Part shown: in pieces, positions 12,298 through 27,409 of the stretch
How positions within the stretch are numbered: the first letter of the stretch is position 1
Layout: every line of letters starts with the position of its first letter
DNA from: Bacteroidaceae bacterium
GTDB taxonomy: Bacteria; Myxococcota_A; Bradymonadia; UBA4248
Assembly (NCBI GenBank): GCA_963633515.1
Contig: CAVGZQ010000001.1
Location: 1-54,255 of the forward strand
DNA: 54,255 nucleotides
Direction: 5' to 3'
Made by a program: the position numbers and the translations under genes
Notes under the pieces: model-generated
Told to the model about the DNA's origin: nothing
Database searches by the model: none
The model's input: the letters and a program-made list of their open reading frames with translations, nothing else

Positions 12298-12885
12298 ATG
12301 TTCCGTTTCCGTACATTCAGACAGTTGGCTTTTGCTGCGGGACTCGGGCTTGCAACGTTGATGGTTTCGTCTTTTGCGCCGGCCGAAGCTATGGCGCAAG
12401 ACACCGACAAAATCACCATGCAATTCGTCGGATTCGGCGCAAATCCCGATTTTTATGCCATCGTCCAAAGCAGCAAATTGGGCGGAAAATCGCTTGTCAT
12501 CTATCAAATCGGCGGTCAAGGCCCGAAACTCGTCTATCCGCTCGGCAAGACGTCGCTCGAAGCAGCGCTCCTGTCGAAAGAAGTCGCCGTTTTCGGCATC
12601 CATGCCAATTACGTTGCCGGCATGGCGGCGCCTGCCGGATACCGTCTCGGCGGCATGGTTATCGGCGAAACGCTTCAGCTCACGCTGTCGGCGGGCGACC
12701 AATCGATGACATTGGGATATGCTCCGATCTTTTCCGATCCGACAAAAACAAAAGTCGCGCAAATGAGCATCGTCAATGCATTTTGGACGCCCGACAGCAA
12801 ACGCGTCGTCATTATTTTGCATCAGACGCTCGACGGCGATTGGCCCGTCGATTCCGACGTCATAGCCGCCTACACGCTCGGATAA
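12298..12885 (+). CDS. Secreted hypothetical protein
   Basis: AGGAGG SD then ATG. MFRFRTFRQLAFAAGLGLATLMVSSFAPAEA-MAQD has a signal peptide with an AxA cleavage site. No family recognised. Confidence 0.7.
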   Translation: MFRFRTFRQLAFAAGLGLATLMVSSFAPAEAMAQDTDKITMQFVGFGANPDFYAIVQSSKLGGKSLVIYQIGGQGPKLVYPLGKTSLEAALLSKEVAVFGIHANYVAGMAAPAGYRLGGMVIGETLQLTLSAGDQSMTLGYAPIFSDPTKTKVAQMSIVNAFWTPDSKRVVIILHQTLDGDWPVDSDVIAAYTLG

Positions 12886-13138
12886 ATCAACCGCTTTGCG
12901 ATGATCGTTTTCGGCGCGCCGCATCGGGGCAATGCATCGGAGCCGCCTTGCGGGGCATCCTTTTTTCGATCGCGCCGCCGCTGCGCGCCGCCGGTTTGAT
13001 GCGATCGAAGGGGTGGATTATTCGTTTGCGCAACGTTTTTTTTCGTTATAAACTTACGCCCATGGCGTTTGGGCAGGAGCCCTTTTCATCAACGACGCTT
13101 CGCCGCGCGCGGCGAAGATTGTATTTGGAGTTGCAACG

Positions 13139-23843: not shown

Positions 23844-26180
23844 ATGCGATCCCTATTGAGCGGAATCCGCAGGCGGTCTTTTTTTTCAGCCATGATGCGA
23901 TACGACGATATGATGAACTTTACGCCGCAAGACCGCGATTTATCCGCCGAGTCAAAAACTTTTGACGGAGAAAGGTCTTTGTCCGATGCGCAGCTCGAAA
24001 CGACGCCGTTTGAATCGGCGCATGAAATGCTTCGTTTGTACCGCGAGCTCTTTATGGCATTGTGCATGTTCAATATCGCCAAAAATCCCGACAGAATGAT
24101 CGACGATATCGGCGCGTATGCGCCGAGACGCGTCGCTTTTCGCGAAATTTTGTCGCAACTTACGGGCGATCCGTCTTCGAAGGCTGTCGAATGGCTGAGT
24201 TCGAATAAAATACCGAGTTGCGCAAGTTGCTCCGAAATTGCTTCGGCGCTATGGCATAACATTGAAATCCGAATCAATGCAACACAACAGGCATCGGTCT
24301 CGCAGTCGGCAGCCGACGGAATTTTGACGTTGCAGCATCTCGAAAAGCGCTTCGGACTTCATTTCGGCGAAACGATGCTGATAGGCTTTCTTGCCCTTAT
24401 TCAATCCGACGAAATGAGCGCTCGCGCTTATGCGTACGCAACGGGCGAGTCTGCCGAAGCGATTGCGAGCGCAGGTTTTCTCGGGCAATGCCTTGCTTTT
24501 TTCGATGTTTCGTTGCAACGCTTCCGGCGCATGTTCGCCCCGGCAAGCCCGCTCATTCGGTATGGACTCATACGTCAGGTTCATCAGGCGGCTTGGGGCG
24601 AAGAAACGCCGCTGCACCAAATGCGTCTCCTTCTTCCGAATAAAATTCTCGGCATTATTCTTAACGATGAAGAAATTACAGTTGTCGCACAATTATCTTG
24701 CGCAACTCCGGTCAGGCTGTCGCCCCGCGATCCGCTCTTTCATTGCCGAAAGCGCATCGAATCGGCAATTGCCGCTGATACTGCCCGCATTGCTGTTGTC
24801 GATGCGCCCGATTGCGCCGAATGGCTTCAAGATGTTATCGCGGCATGCGGATATCATAGCGCCGTCATTGATTCGCGGTCGCTTCAGAGCGATTATCCCG
24901 ACGGCGATATCGGGGAGCTCGTGCGCGATTTGATCCTATGCGACAGCGTGCTCATCGTTCGATGGCATGAACTTGTGCCCGGACCGGAAACATCAAATGA
25001 TATTGCGTGGTTCAAAAACATCGGACCGCGCATATATCAACGTCTCAAATCGGAGCCGCGACTCCGATTGTGCGTCATTGCCGATCGGCAATCGTTGCTT
25101 ACGCGCGCCGTATTCGGCGATCTTGCCGAAATCGAATTGCCCAAACCGTCGCAAACCGATCAGGCGAAGCTTTGGAGTCAAGCGCTTGCGCTCGAAGTAA
25201 GCAAGGAACAGGCCCGGCAAATTGCCGAACAGCTTTCCGGCGGTTATTGTCTCGCAATGCGCGAGATTCAGTCTGCCATCGAACAAACCCGGGCGCACTG
25301 TCCCGATGCTGAGCTCAGCGCAGACTTGATTACGCAAACGCTCAACAAAACCCGCGGGCGTTCGCTCGAGGGTTTGGCTGCACTGCGCAGCACAACGCTT
25401 ACGCTCGACGATATCGTGCTTTCCGACGATATGCGAGCGACATTCGATGAAGTATTGGCATACGCCCGCCATCGCGATACCGTCATGCATCAATGGGGAT
25501 TCGATAAGTACAATGCAAGCGGCGCCGGGCTCTGCGTTCTGCTTTCCGGCGTGCCCGGCACCGGAAAAACGCTGTCGGCGCTTGTCTTGGCTCATGAACT
25601 CCGGCGCGCGTTATACGTCATCGATTTATCGCGCATCGTCGATAAATATATCGGGGAAACCGAGAAAAAGCTTGCTGCGATTTTCGACGAAGCCGAAAGC
25701 TCTCAAGCCGTTTTGCTATTCGACGAAGCCGATTCGCTTTTCTCGAAACGCACAAATGTCAAATCGTCTAACGATCGATATGCCAATCTCGAAGTCAATT
25801 ACCTTTTGCAACGGCTCGAAGCGTATCGCGGCGTTTCGATTATGACGACGAATTTTGCCGACGGACTCGACGAAGCTCTTGCGCGCCGCATTCCGTTCAA
25901 AGTTCGTTTCCCGATGCCCGACGAAGCAATGCGCGCAATTTTATGGCAACGTCTCATTCCGCCGCGAGCTCCTGTAGGCGATGACATCGATTGCGAAGCA
26001 TTGGGACACGCTTTTGAAATGAGCGGCGGACATATCAAAAATGCCGTTTTCCGTGCGGCCATTCGCGCAGCTCAGGAGGATAATCCCATCGATCATGCCA
26101 TGCTGTGGGATGCCGCGCTTCAGGAATTCCGCGAAATGGGACACGTTATCCGCGACACCGTGTCAGAACAATATTATTGA
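23844..26180 (+). CDS. AAA+ ATPase of the type found in eCIS loci (Afp15-like), with about 550-aa N-terminal region of unknown function
   Basis: Walker A GVPGTGKT (25548-25571) and Walker B LLFDEAD (25713-25733). YIGETEKKLAAIFDEAE...DRYANLEVNYLLQRLEAYRGVSIMTTNFADGLDEALARRIPFKVRFPMPD matches the signature I recall for eCIS-associated ATPases. The start codon is uncertain (Met codons at 23844, 23892, 23910). Confidence 0.8.
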   Translation: MRSLLSGIRRRSFFSAMMRYDDMMNFTPQDRDLSAESKTFDGERSLSDAQLETTPFESAHEMLRLYRELFMALCMFNIAKNPDRMIDDIGAYAPRRVAFREILSQLTGDPSSKAVEWLSSNKIPSCASCSEIASALWHNIEIRINATQQASVSQSAADGILTLQHLEKRFGLHFGETMLIGFLALIQSDEMSARAYAYATGESAEAIASAGFLGQCLAFFDVSLQRFRRMFAPASPLIRYGLIRQVHQAAWGEETPLHQMRLLLPNKILGIILNDEEITVVAQLSCATPVRLSPRDPLFHCRKRIESAIAADTARIAVVDAPDCAEWLQDVIAACGYHSAVIDSRSLQSDYPDGDIGELVRDLILCDSVLIVRWHELVPGPETSNDIAWFKNIGPRIYQRLKSEPRLRLCVIADRQSLLTRAVFGDLAEIELPKPSQTDQAKLWSQALALEVSKEQARQIAEQLSGGYCLAMREIQSAIEQTRAHCPDAELSADLITQTLNKTRGRSLEGLAALRSTTLTLDDIVLSDDMRATFDEVLAYARHRDTVMHQWGFDKYNASGAGLCVLLSGVPGTGKTLSALVLAHELRRALYVIDLSRIVDKYIGETEKKLAAIFDEAESSQAVLLFDEADSLFSKRTNVKSSNDRYANLEVNYLLQRLEAYRGVSIMTTNFADGLDEALARRIPFKVRFPMPDEAMRAILWQRLIPPRAPVGDDIDCEALGHAFEMSGGHIKNAVFRAAIRAAQEDNPIDHAMLWDAALQEFREMGHVIRDTVSEQYY

Positions 26181-27409
26181 TGATTGACATGAGTTTCGGC
26201 GTTTTCTTCGAAATCTTTTGAGCTTGCGCTCGGTTCGGGCGGATCGCCGGCGGCGATTGCATTTATATCGTTTTCGCCGTTTTCATCGGCATCTTTTGCC
26301 CCCGTTCCGGTTTTCTCGCATTCGTTTATATCGCTTTTGCCCGCAACGTTTGCGCCGTTCGGTTCATTTTCGGCGCTTTCATTTTCGCGCGCATCGCATC
26401 GGTCATTTTCATGCGGCGCGTCATCGGCATTGCAATCGAAGGAAGGCGAATCTTCTTTTGGGGCATTATATGAATCGTTTTCGGACGGAAGAACGCCGCA
26501 TGCTTTCTCAGAAGCATTTTGGGCTTTTTGGCGCATGTTTGCATACATCGGCGACCATGCATCCAGCTTTTGATATAACGATTTATCGATTTCTGTTTCT
26601 TTTGATATATCTAAAAACTCGCAGGCCATTTTTGTTTGAGCCCACGAATCGAAAAAAGCGATTTTGAAAGATAACATCAAAAGAAATGATATGCCCATCC
26701 ACGGAAACGAACTCACGCTCAACGAACGCGAAACGGCCAGTCCGGGCAGCCAGAAGATAAAAAACAAAATCAGGCAGCCGATCATGACAAACATGCTCAG
26801 CCGAAATGCGCGGCTGACGAAGATGTCCCATTTTTGAACGAGTATCGTCAATGCGTCGACACATGCCGCGTTGAGTTCATAGTCGCGGCGGCGCAGGGCA
26901 TATGCAATGCAACAGTCATCGGCTCTTGCAATTGCCGTGTGGCTGAGCAACATTAACAGCCGGCGTGAAGTTCTGAAATCGGGCGCATCCGACTTCAAAG
27001 AAAAACCTCGCGATATCACGCGCATAAACTGTTTGATGGCAATCGATATATTGCGCGAATAAAAATAAAAGCTGCGGCTCGAACCAAACCGCGCGCCGAC
27101 GATATTTTTTGAATATTCAATGGGATTTGACGGTATTTCTTTTCCGGAATTTGCGCGTTCCGTCACGGCCAGCTGACCGGTTCGGATGCTGTATCCCAAT
27201 CGGCTCATCGTTGCATAATGCAAAATGACGATTGCCAAAAAGGCGCCGCATCCTATGGCTATGTCTGTCAATAAATCGAATTCGAAATTTGTAACAATCA
27301 AGTATGCGGCGCCGATAATAAGCAAGCCGATGATGCAATTTAAAAAACCGATGCCAAGCCGTATCCAATTGAATATCATAACTTTTCGATATATAGCGCT
27401 CGGTCTCAT
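26174..27409 (-). CDS. Multi-pass membrane protein with acidic disordered C-terminal tail
   Basis: GAGGGA SD before ATG 27409. Hydrophobic segments WIRLGIGFLNCIIGLLIIGAAYLIV, IAIGCGAFLAIVILHY, MFVMIGCLILFFIFWLPGLAV and WMGISFLLMLSFKIAFF. The 3' end overlaps the ATPase gene convergently by 7 nt. The region is visibly more AT-rich. Confidence 0.65.
   Translation of the reverse strand: MRPSAIYRKVMIFNWIRLGIGFLNCIIGLLIIGAAYLIVTNFEFDLLTDIAIGCGAFLAIVILHYATMSRLGYSIRTGQLAVTERANSGKEIPSNPIEYSKNIVGARFGSSRSFYFYSRNISIAIKQFMRVISRGFSLKSDAPDFRTSRRLLMLLSHTAIARADDCCIAYALRRRDYELNAACVDALTILVQKWDIFVSRAFRLSMFVMIGCLILFFIFWLPGLAVSRSLSVSSFPWMGISFLLMLSFKIAFFDSWAQTKMACEFLDISKETEIDKSLYQKLDAWSPMYANMRQKAQNASEKACGVLPSENDSYNAPKEDSPSFDCNADDAPHENDRCDARENESAENEPNGANVAGKSDINECEKTGTGAKDADENGENDINAIAAGDPPEPSASSKDFEENAETHVNHQ

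Follow-up and report, generated by a model that had tools for sequence, protein, structure and literature searches.

A contractile injection system probably dispersed as small modules among housekeeping genes in the Bradymonadales

In the window analysed here, a stretch of 54,255 nucleotides, two pieces of a single contractile injection system (CIS) probably occupy separate sites, the system being split into small modules that lie between housekeeping genes. The first piece consists of a tail assembly chaperone, which a putative -1 frameshift at a G7 run would extend by a DUF6760 tail, and a long sheath paralogue; in the second, a HEXXH protein and a lipoprotein accompany an Afp15/Cis15-type WHD-AAA ATPase. 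Judged by sequence similarity, the CIS is of the Myxococcota type, with the Streptomyces cytoplasmic CIS as its nearest solved relative. Here, we show the identities of these genes, their split arrangement in relatives and the purifying selection acting on them, and we infer that the remaining CIS parts are still present elsewhere in the genome to which the window belongs. The window probably holds few CIS genes because its clade, of predatory-type bacteria, has the CIS split into scattered blocks, which selection still keeps intact in the Bradymonadales. Contractile injection systems themselves are already known; what is new is the organisation. A preliminary description had treated positions 12298-27409 as one accessory block and offered three explanations for it. 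Given that the neighbours of the sheath module and of the block around a PKD-domain gene vary among relatives, the region is rather two independently placed pieces, and a split CIS with its core elsewhere is the best fit of the three, supported by comparative gene arrangements.

The tail sheath gene that had been noticed at 13730-15484 (forward strand, 584 aa) is borne out by Pfam (PF04984, 2e-13; PF17482, 1e-10) and PHROG (phrog_23 tail sheath, 3e-53), and is the long sheath paralogue of a Myxococcota-type CIS. Among solved structures the sheath is nearest to that of the Streptomyces CIS (8BKY/8BL4, ~1e-77), followed by Pvc2 and Afp2/3. Orthologues range from 89% down to 36% identity at lengths of ~580-590 aa throughout, and intact full-length copies form more than 30 sequence clusters. 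Over the divergence of the window and its sister species, a span that leaves room for partner genes having been lost very recently in the window lineage, the sheath dN/dS is 0.073 at a dS of 0.86, the window branch carrying 66 synonymous and 11 non-synonymous changes and the sister branch 68 and 11. Purifying selection is strong on both sheath and chaperone, and the window's own branch shows no relaxation.

For the gpE-like chaperone placed at 13139-13671, the identity stood and the end did not: the protein (gpE/gpG-like, 123 aa, forward strand) matches phrog_508 (tail assembly chaperone, 5e-8) and stops at 13510, and 13671 is the end of an extension in the -1 frame. The eCIS of Rhodococcus pWB1 has an orthologue of it with the annotation 'phage tail assembly protein', identity across relatives is 90-99%, and dN/dS is 0.012. 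The extension, a DUF6760 segment at 13498-13671 (forward strand; PF20546, 2e-15), has its first possible ATG, GTG or TTG start at 13591 and none earlier, and would be a frameshift extension of the chaperone analogous to P2 E+E' or lambda GT. Direct reading suggests the G7 run at 13498-13504 on the same strand (ctg ggg ggg tat taa) as the candidate -1 frameshift site. DUF6760 lies in the -1 frame at all 85 distinct junctions compared (85/85), with a G-run within the overlap in most, and third-position variation in the S-Y-P codons right behind the chaperone stop is synonymous. Phage tail assembly chaperones are reportedly made by programmed -1 frameshifting (lambda G/GT, P2 E/E+E'), as Xu, Hendrix and Duda are said to have described in 2004. 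As in those phages, the small chaperone ORF overlaps a -1-frame ORF behind it that lacks its own start codon, and a homopolymeric slippery run sits inside the overlap. Unlike in lambda and P2, the frameshift here is putative and sequence-based, the chaperone pair is not directly 5' of a tape measure gene, because the long sheath and tube2 intervene, and the tape measure gene itself is absent from the window.

The chaperone-then-sheath order, earlier regarded as a reversed anomaly, is in fact a slice of a canonical one. Single clusters in Myxococcota run cap, small sheath, tube, chaperone, DUF6760, long sheath, tube2, tape measure, initiator, spike, gp25 and J, and the window's genes fall within the small sheath-tube-chaperone-DUF6760-long sheath-tube2-tape measure stretch. 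Canonical clusters with the same 123-aa chaperone and long sheath occur at L006/L007, L008, L009 and ~60 other Myxococcota loci. The lack of tube, cap, tape measure, spike and baseplate genes noted before for the block extends to the whole 54 kb window: all its large ORFs were scanned against Pfam, PHROG and NCBIfam with no further CIS part detected, and tblastn (E <= 0.05) with 47 CIS proteins of the closest relatives against the whole window matched the chaperone, the sheath and the PKD gene, and nothing else. Profile searches proposed for two ORFs found no tube or baseplate domain in either. The first (12298-12885, forward strand), at the left boundary, encodes a secreted protein of 195 aa with a signal peptide that is syntenic with the sister species (86% aa identity), matches no family in these three scans and does not belong to the CIS; the second (23157-23798) is a lipoprotein gene of the ATPase block.

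Synteny with related genomes, a comparison suggested at the outset, shows the sheath module kept and placed among differing neighbours (L004/L005, L174, L181 and L233), with the system split across the clade. At L004/L005, chaperone, DUF6760 and long sheath are isolated between an M17 peptidase and a TPR gene, and at L011 cap-small sheath-tube-tube is flanked by ddl and pgm; L005 and L011 are two modules on separate contigs of one more distant MAG (JBBAEA01), linked by metagenome binning. The two nearest outgroups, L174 and L181, hold chaperone through spike together, cap and small sheath being absent upstream and gp25 and J downstream; in L181 this module lies directly behind gidA. At L233/L234 a chaperone-to-spike run is followed by a PBP gene and then by cap-small sheath-tube. 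Several relatives have cap, small sheath and tube1 flanked by genes for a PBP1-type protein and a PPIase; in L181, L174 and L233/L234, the long sheath is followed by tube2, tape measure, tube initiator and spike. The sister species (four assemblies, L177-L180) shares the window's left flank and carries cap-small sheath-tube 7 kb past the long sheath on the opposite strand. Tube2-tape measure-initiator-spike was not found in the data examined for the window's species or the sister species, and among the matches listed the gp25/J baseplate module was found in no split-clade genome examined, the J homologue search being technically poor.

In a neighbour-joining tree, the window and the sister species are nested inside lineages with the longer module. 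The rpsA-M49-gidA synteny of L181 corresponds to window 40387-46093, and L181 homology next resumes at window 13079-15484. The chaperone-sheath piece may have been excised, in the window lineage, from a larger gidA-adjacent module at the long-sheath/tube2 spacer, with a 38-nt hairpin repeat at both presumed breakpoints and a nuclease-gene remnant at the right one. Three copies of this repeat occupy 46109-46220, directly 3' of the gidA stop codon, the site where the nearest outgroup L181 holds its chaperone-sheath-tube2-tape measure-spike module. The terminator, 11-copy hairpin array and AT-rich junction reported behind the sheath are all present: an intrinsic-terminator-like hairpin with a T-run (15501-15537, forward strand; hairpin 15501-15523), a REP/BIME-like array (15539-15964; 38 nt x 11.2 copies, 94% matches) and an AT-rich stretch at about 16095-16160. 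The array marks the right breakpoint of the sheath module, and its counterpart at this position in the sister species is a 36-nt x 3.9 array; the 38-nt repeat is a dispersed intergenic family and not a CIS feature. The degraded nuclease gene is less certain: TIGR01784 Rpn (0.0026) and PF12784 PDDEXK_2 (0.039) cover one profile region and weakly support a probable PD-(D/E)XK/Rpn-type, transposase-like nuclease remnant at 16321-16845 (forward strand), frameshifted in the independent MAG assembly L001.

On the right, the eCIS Afp15-type ATPase recognised at 23844-26180 (forward strand) holds up, with PF00004 (AAA), PF22977 (WHD) and the motif DRYANLE..YLLQRLE in agreement. It shares its WHD+AAA architecture, and 40% identity over 369 aligned aa, with the ATPase encoded within the eCIS cluster of Rhodococcus pWB1. 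Its best plasmid matches reach 210-250 bits against ~106 bits for p97/Cdc48, in a homologue search that was technically poor. Canonical Myxococcota clusters have no ATPase inside, and hence family membership alone links it to the CIS. The HEXXH protein at 21676-23154 (forward strand), correctly described as signal-less, has its motif at residue 240, a low-complexity N-terminus of ~110 aa, weak family matches and a dN/dS of 0.13 against L089; it is a candidate cargo. Translationally adjacent to it, 23157-23798 (forward strand) encodes a 213-aa lipoprotein with an LTGC lipobox, possibly an immunity or partner protein, with no family match in profile scans and no homologue in the relatives' loci compared. 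A 411-aa membrane protein gene (26174-27409, reverse strand), convergent with the ATPase gene, is conserved in L089 only. The PKD/CARDB/PPC lipoprotein noted before is confirmed by its lipobox and domain matches (17392-21336, forward strand, 17392 being the likely true start), and is a neighbour with an unproven CIS link. L089, a 91%-identical relative, keeps the PKD-HEXXH-ATPase block, with an unrelated gene 5' of PKD at the window's sheath position, and the sister-species PKD orthologue is 62% identical, inverted and co-oriented with cap-sheath-tube.

It is unlikely that we are looking at a reduced or re-purposed system that would dispense with a classical baseplate and tape measure and run on long sheath, chaperone and ATPase, along with cap, small sheath and tube, the PKD/CARDB lipoprotein, a Cys-rich lipoprotein and the HEXXH protein perhaps serving as partners. 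PKD does adjoin CIS modules in the window and again in the sister species, where it lies 3' of cap-small sheath-tube-Cys-rich lipoprotein, and HEXXH-lipoprotein-ATPase is shared with L089 under purifying selection; gp25/J is missing from the matches listed for split-clade genomes, although this is absence of evidence. However, the PKD, HEXXH, 213-aa and 411-aa proteins have no homologues at L004, L011, L012, L013, L174, L181 and L233, and the tape measure is the only known target of such a chaperone. The earlier idea of a non-canonical machine reusing the PKD lipoprotein and the protease is unsupported because the neighbours are not conserved (L004/L005, L174, L181, L233, L089 and the sister species).

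Decay, the second of the original explanations, with the CIS lost and chaperone, sheath and ATPase left to become pseudogenes, is improbable. It would accommodate the scar of array, AT-rich stretch and degraded nuclease gene immediately 3' of the sheath, the absence from the window of the tube2-to-spike run located behind the sheath in L181 and L174, and the baseplate not found across the clade, but the ORFs are intact, and we reject it because dN/dS is low (0.07 sheath, 0.01 chaperone) and the window branch is unrelaxed, its synonymous/non-synonymous ratio being that of the sister branch. The sister species also has cap-sheath-tube nearby, and the short arrangement is common to two species at a dS of ~0.9 and arose independently in L004/L005. 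A contig chimeric at the array, with a spurious sheath/PKD-ATPase adjacency, is similarly improbable: the repeat family is dispersed over at least two window loci, two Logan assemblies terminate at the array, L001 has only 2-3 copies and L177 has an N-gap at the equivalent array, but L001 has the same junction and unique flanks at 99.5% identity, the sister species too has PKD, inverted, right behind the sheath, and, chimeric or not, the chaperone-sheath piece is isolated by a non-CIS left flank and by terminator and array on the right.

If the window holds dispersed pieces of one CIS, as we favour, the separate loci would imply separate module expression. The chaperone and its frameshift product would hold the tape measure during tube polymerisation on the baseplate, small and long sheath would polymerise round the tube, the cap would terminate it, and the ATPase may serve assembly or cargo loading, as proposed for Afp15/Pvc15.

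Among known systems, the Streptomyces cytoplasmic CIS (CIS-Sc/Sv, sheath models 8BKY/8BL4; Casu et al. 2023, PMC10066040) provides the best solved-structure match of the window's sheath, and the related actinobacterial cluster of Rhodococcus pWB1 has a matching list of parts (WHD-AAA ATPase, Pvc16 cap, sheath, tube, 'phage tail assembly protein' and DUF6760). Both are contiguous clusters with one sheath gene, whereas here the sheath has two paralogues and the genes are dispersed. With Afp and PVC (Chen 2019, PMC6899500; Geller 2021, PMC8213781) the window shares a sheath homologous to Afp2/3/4 and Pvc2/3/4 and an Afp15-type ATPase, and its canonical relatives share two sheath and two tube paralogues and a similar part list; unlike Afp and PVC, these relatives have the cap at the cluster start and the ATPase outside the cluster. 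An eCIS is operationally defined by at least 10 core genes lying close together (PMC6899500; PMC8213781), a number that the window does not reach. Marine Myxococcota MAGs carry PLTS/eCIS-like clusters of the same phylum and sheath-tube kind (ISME Commun 2025, PMC11937823), the canonical contiguous form of what is fragmented in the window; that paper describes contiguous clusters only, and the Bradymonadales multi-locus arrangement is absent from it. As in T6SS with orphan hcp/vgrG/PAAR islands, a contractile machine is spread over several chromosomal loci and retained by selection. Unlike in T6SS, the window's sheath is single-chain and of the phage/eCIS type, not TssB/TssC, membrane-complex genes are absent, and it is the sheath and chaperone that are dispersed, whereas in T6SS it is mainly spike and effector genes.

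Profile scans of the window's ORFs place the block at 12298-27409 between housekeeping genes on both sides, with adenosine deaminase, S13 peptidase and a Zn-ribbon/GYF protein to the left and dnaK, grpE, an ABC-F protein and a kinase to the right; farther right come rpsA, an M49 peptidase gene, gidA, RNase E, tex and ribD. The 54 kb hold three core-type genes of a contractile injection system (CIS): a 123-aa tail assembly chaperone (13139-13510; PHROG 508 at 5e-8), a 584-aa long sheath (13730-15484; PF04984 and PF17482, phrog_23 at 3e-53) and a 778-aa ATPase with a WHD and a single AAA domain (23844-26180; PF22977). 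Pfam, PHROG and NCBIfam scans found no further CIS parts in the window's large ORFs, and a tblastn search of the whole window with 47 CIS proteins of the closest relatives (cap, both tubes, tape measure, initiator, spike, PAAR, gp25, J, Tail_P2_I and FHA proteins; E <= 0.05) matched only the chaperone, the sheath and the PKD/CARDB/PPC lipoprotein gene (PKD). Within the window, this bears out the preliminary description, which had reported tube, spike, baseplate, tape measure and cap genes as missing: there is no gp19/Hcp-like tube beside the sheath, no baseplate core (LysM/CIS_tube initiator, GPD/VgrG spike, gp25, J) and no cap/terminator (Pvc16_N/DUF4255). Among relatives, a tube adjoins the sheath in the nearest outgroups (L181, L174) and in locus L233 and lies 7 kb off in the sister species (L177-L180), and a cap gene is found in the sister species and in the MAG that contains locus L005. 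The PKD lipoprotein, signal-less HEXXH protein, terminator and AT-rich junction listed earlier are all present. The degraded nuclease gene is a putative PD-(D/E)XK/Rpn remnant, with weak Rpn/PDDEXK_2 profile matches (E = 0.0026 and 0.039), both under curated cut-offs and only ~60 residues long.

Three further ORFs deserve a remark. The Zn-ribbon/GYF 'AgmX-like' gene (8945-11986) contains a 42-nt coding tandem repeat (x3.3, 10613-10751) with the motif SGIPDISLDASGDA, and its product varies from 1013 to 1080 aa among relatives. The 580-aa minus-strand ORF at 40480-42222 is a shadow of plus-strand rpsA (40387-42105, six S1 domains). The 104-aa ORF at 21339-21653 is probably no gene: it is Cys/Arg-rich, and a relative with 91% DNA identity conserves just 49% of it.

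The best solved relatives of the sheath are the Streptomyces cytoplasmic CIS models 8BKY/8BL4 (about 1e-77), followed by Pvc2, Afp2/3, AlgoCIS and the cyanobacterial tCIS, with pyocin and T4 sheaths far weaker. The earlier sheath assignment is sound: the protein carries Phage_sheath_1 and Phage_sheath_1C and is closest to CIS sheaths. A T6SS sheath consists of two chains, TssB and TssC, whereas this one is a single chain with its best matches among sheaths of extracellular (eCIS) and other CIS; the window scans detected no T6SS families, neither TssB/TssC nor a membrane complex. Full-length orthologues, from 89% down to 36% identical, occur in Bradymonadales and other Myxococcota MAGs. By sequence, the sheath is a member of the Afp/PVC/Streptomyces-CIS superfamily and may form part of a contractile sheath-tube particle.

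A complete cluster with the same 123-aa chaperone and long sheath was found at 40-55% sheath identity. Its order is Pvc16_N cap, 391-aa small sheath, gp19-like tube, chaperone, DUF6760, long sheath, second tube (tube2), tape measure of ~1400-1700 aa, CIS_tube/LysM initiator, GPD-like spike, 63-aa Zn-ribbon protein, gp25, baseplate J of about 1000 aa, Tail_P2_I, a 510-aa protein and two FHA proteins. Contiguous Myxococcota clusters of this kind have already been published (PMC11937823). The chaperone-then-sheath order, previously read as reversed, is no anomaly, since it is merely a slice of this canonical order. The canonical clusters L148 (10001-17833) and L173 (10001-17796) close with J, Tail_P2_I, the 510-aa protein and the two FHA-domain proteins, and no AAA ATPase was found inside the canonical Myxococcota clusters examined, whereas most described eCIS loci carry one.

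At family level the chaperone is gpE-like as proposed (phrog_508), and a Rhodococcus orthologue 58% identical to it is named 'phage tail assembly protein' by PGAP. A DUF6760 segment (13498-13671; PF20546 at 2e-15) sits in the -1 frame relative to it, has no ATG, GTG or TTG before 13591, and shares with it an overlap that holds a G7 run at 13498-13504 (ctg ggg ggg tat taa). We surveyed 85 distinct chaperone-DUF6760 junctions (loci L001-L204), drawn from Myxococcota and elsewhere, among them Rhodococcus pWB1. DUF6760 lay in the -1 frame and overlapped the 3' end of the chaperone in all 85, by 13-40 nt in most, and most junctions had a run of at least five G inside the overlap and no start codon. 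Codons directly after the chaperone stop vary synonymously, for example S-Y-P as AGC TAC/TAT CCC/CCA/CCT/CCG. PGAP annotates DUF6760 as a separate 47-aa gene, and it goes unmentioned in the literature searched. Lambda G/GT and P2 E/E+E' show the same pattern: a -1-frame second ORF that has no start codon of its own and overlaps the first at a slippery run. Those pairs sit immediately upstream of the tape measure, but the window has no tape measure, and in relatives the long sheath and tube2 intervene. DUF6760 looks like an extension that a predicted frameshift adds to the tail assembly chaperone of the CIS, analogous to GT or E+E', and the domain can be explained in this way. The chaperone is 90-99% identical among genomes whose long sheaths are merely 51-89% identical (the window against loci L006, L004, L174 and L181), and this conservation (dN/dS about 0.01) is unusually strong for a phage-derived chaperone.

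In the window's clade the CIS genes lie in separate modules. In L004/L005, where the sheath is 65% identical to that of the window, chaperone-DUF6760-long sheath stands by itself, flanked by genes for an M17 peptidase and a TPR protein, and a genome scan with the small sheath located cap-small sheath-tube-tube between ddl and phosphoglucomutase (L011) on a contig different from that of L005 in the same MAG (JBBAEA01). The tube gene of L011 is a tandem duplicate (11274-12242; Bradymonadales MAG SO_2017_LW2_140). In L174 (72%) and L181 (77%), chaperone through spike forms a single module amid housekeeping genes, with no cap/small sheath upstream and no gp25/J downstream. Loci L233/L234 run from chaperone-to-spike through a PBP1-type gene to cap-small sheath-tube and a PPIase gene; the PBP-cap-small sheath-tube-PPIase order recurs in L012 and L013, and L015, which begins at the cap, has cap-small sheath-tube-PPIase. 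In several species, cap-small sheath-tube occupies a fixed chromosomal site between the genes for a PBP1-type transglycosylase and a PPIase (12901-19062 in L233/L234).

The sister species, represented by four independent assemblies, has a sheath 89% (aa) and 85% (nt) identical to that of the window and the left flank in common with it; directly past the long sheath, on the opposite strand, lie PKD, a Cys-rich repeat lipoprotein, tube, small sheath and cap. The Cys-rich lipoprotein (16211-18614, between tube and PKD) differs in repeat number across these same-species assemblies and measures 655, 718 or 779 aa. Locus L014 matches the module of the sister species at 99-100% identity; it is one of four loci (L014, L018, L019, L032) with a Myxococcota-type CIS in MAGs labelled Bacteroidales or 'uncultured Enterobacteriaceae', and these bins are probably mislabelled or contaminated. 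In an NJ tree, the window and the sister species are nested within lineages that keep the longer module, with L004 basal to them, so the break between long sheath and tube2 arose at least twice. A single simple inversion does not reproduce the window's gene order from that of the sister species; inversion from an L233-like ancestor is hypothesized for the sister species' arrangement only.

The ATPase motif noted before recurs in alignment (DRYANLEVNYLLQRLE against DRYANIEIAYLLQKME). A PDB search returned generic Cdc48/p97 D2 domains alone (about 106 bits), and a homologue search was dominated by generic AAA words (three matches); we used plasmid tblastn and annotated context instead. The plasmid matches score 210-250 bits over residues about 410-770, and the two best of the contexts inspected both have links to eCIS. 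The ATPase gene of Rhodococcus pWB1 stands immediately before Pvc16 cap-sheath-tube-'phage tail assembly protein'-'DUF6760 family protein'-LysM-gpD-V-PAAR-gp25-J, and that of Brasilonema pBOCT2 is close to baseplate genes and a gene for a DUF4255 protein. Both plasmid ATPases share the WHD+AAA architecture, and the Afp15/Cis15-type assignment stands. Because the canonical Myxococcota clusters have no ATPase, its tie to the CIS is one of family membership only. The HEXXH, 213-aa, 411-aa, 104-aa, 1115-aa and other uncharacterized proteins matched close relatives only when compared by phmmer with every ORF of all fetched loci. The HEXXH protein has a low-complexity N-terminus, no signal peptide and no relative found in the PDB and, like the adjacent lipoprotein and the convergent membrane protein, it lacks homologues in the other fetched loci; calling it a 'payload' is a guess.

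The arrangement probably reflects a CIS that is dispersed yet functional, with the chaperone-long sheath module and the ATPase as the window's share of it. Context, genome and metagenome scans turned up no gp25/J module among the split-clade genomes examined, tube2-tape measure-initiator-spike was not found in the loci of the window's species or the sister species, and viral-contig scans that took the ATPase, the small sheath, the L181 spike or a J alignment as query gave nothing, or nothing relevant. The J homologue search did not return even the query's own cluster, and no match exceeded 50% identity. The window does not encode P0147, P0152 and P0164 come from canonical clusters with a broken J gene, the isolated gp25-J module of P0141 has 60% GC and no link to the window's clade, and P0182 and P0189 look to be from low-GC organisms. 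Locus L092, which resembled a split-clade baseplate in its J (76% identical) and GC (54%), belongs to the canonical L009 contig. A reduced system that works without a baseplate would fit these negative scans and is a doubtful alternative. In other Myxococcota a 63-67-aa Zn-ribbon protein, gp25 and J form modules of their own, with housekeeping genes (plsX, patatin) as direct neighbours (L175, 5166-7089; L176, L101, L099). Baseplate modules have therefore split off elsewhere in the phylum as well, which makes a separate baseplate module in the window's clade plausible. It is improbable that tape measure, spike and baseplate are truly gone from the window's species, perhaps from the whole short-module lineage. 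If they were, the long sheath, frameshifted chaperone, cap-small sheath-tube and Afp15-type ATPase would be kept by strong selection for a baseplate-independent function, with a possible role for the PKD/CARDB and Cys-rich lipoproteins, co-directional in the sister species; a sheath-tube machine would then nucleate and fire, or act structurally, without a conserved baseplate.

Selection bears on whether the locus is decaying. Against the sister species, dN/dS is 0.073 for the long sheath (dS 0.86) and 0.012 for the chaperone; against L089, a 91%-identical relative of the window's right side, it is 0.18 for the ATPase, 0.13 for the HEXXH protein, 0.35 for the 213-aa lipoprotein and 0.25 for the 411-aa membrane protein. 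Polarized with L181 and L174 as outgroups, sheath changes number 66 synonymous and 11 non-synonymous on the window branch, against 68 and 11 for the sister species: the lineage without a neighbouring cap-sheath-tube module shows no relaxation. The dN/dS values and branch counts together rule out long-standing decay, a result that does not reach very recent loss of partners. Very recent orphaning or decay is a slender prospect.

L181 and the window share synteny across rpsA-M49-gidA (window 40387-46093), after which the homology of L181 shifts to window 13079-15484, from the chaperone with a 60-nt leader through the sheath stop codon. Copies of a 38-nt hairpin repeat follow two stop codons in the window: three come after gidA (46109-46220; x2.9), and 11 come after the sheath gene and its terminator, as the hairpin array (38-nt x 11.2) already described. 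Since the repeat follows both genes, the array belongs to a dispersed, REP-like family whose copies mark the two breakpoints. With an imperfect palindromic unit of ~35-40 nt in intergenic arrays at several loci, the family is REP/BIME-like and breaks assemblies. The window's chaperone-sheath piece would have been cut out of a gidA-adjacent module, and the repeat may have taken part in the rearrangement. The sister species has a different array (36-nt x 3.9; L178, 11818-11958) at the equivalent post-sheath position. A related 78-nt x 4 array lies at 37622-37933, inside the long minus-strand ORF 34970-38317. To the right of 17083, the window is 91% identical to L089, where PKD follows an unrelated 566-aa gene; the piece with the sheath and the PKD-HEXXH-lipoprotein-ATPase piece were therefore placed independently. 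That the contig is misassembled at the array and the sheath-PKD/ATPase adjacency false is possible but quite unlikely: two Logan assemblies end at the array and L001, an independent MAG, has fewer repeat copies, but the junction recurs in L001 at 99.5% identity, and even a real artefact would leave the chaperone-sheath pair isolated. That the long-sheath/tube2 spacer was broken repeatedly and independently suggests natural operon boundaries and recombination at repeat arrays.

The organization is new, and the type of machine is known. The survey of Geller et al. 2021 relied on ten or more core genes lying close together, with an eCIS-specific one among them (PMC8213781), and the window, with its three core-type genes, falls outside that operational definition of an eCIS locus. 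Given that surveys need many adjacent core genes, modules of 2-8 genes among housekeeping genes are invisible to them, and counts of CIS-bearing taxa would be underestimates, as cluster-based surveys would miss the split lineage. Fixed sites (PBP1-cap-sheath-tube-PPIase), very strong purifying selection and the lack of a mobile-element context suggest long-term domestication. In this respect the dispersed system looks closer to a T6SS or the Streptomyces cytoplasmic CIS than to a horizontally moving toxin cassette.
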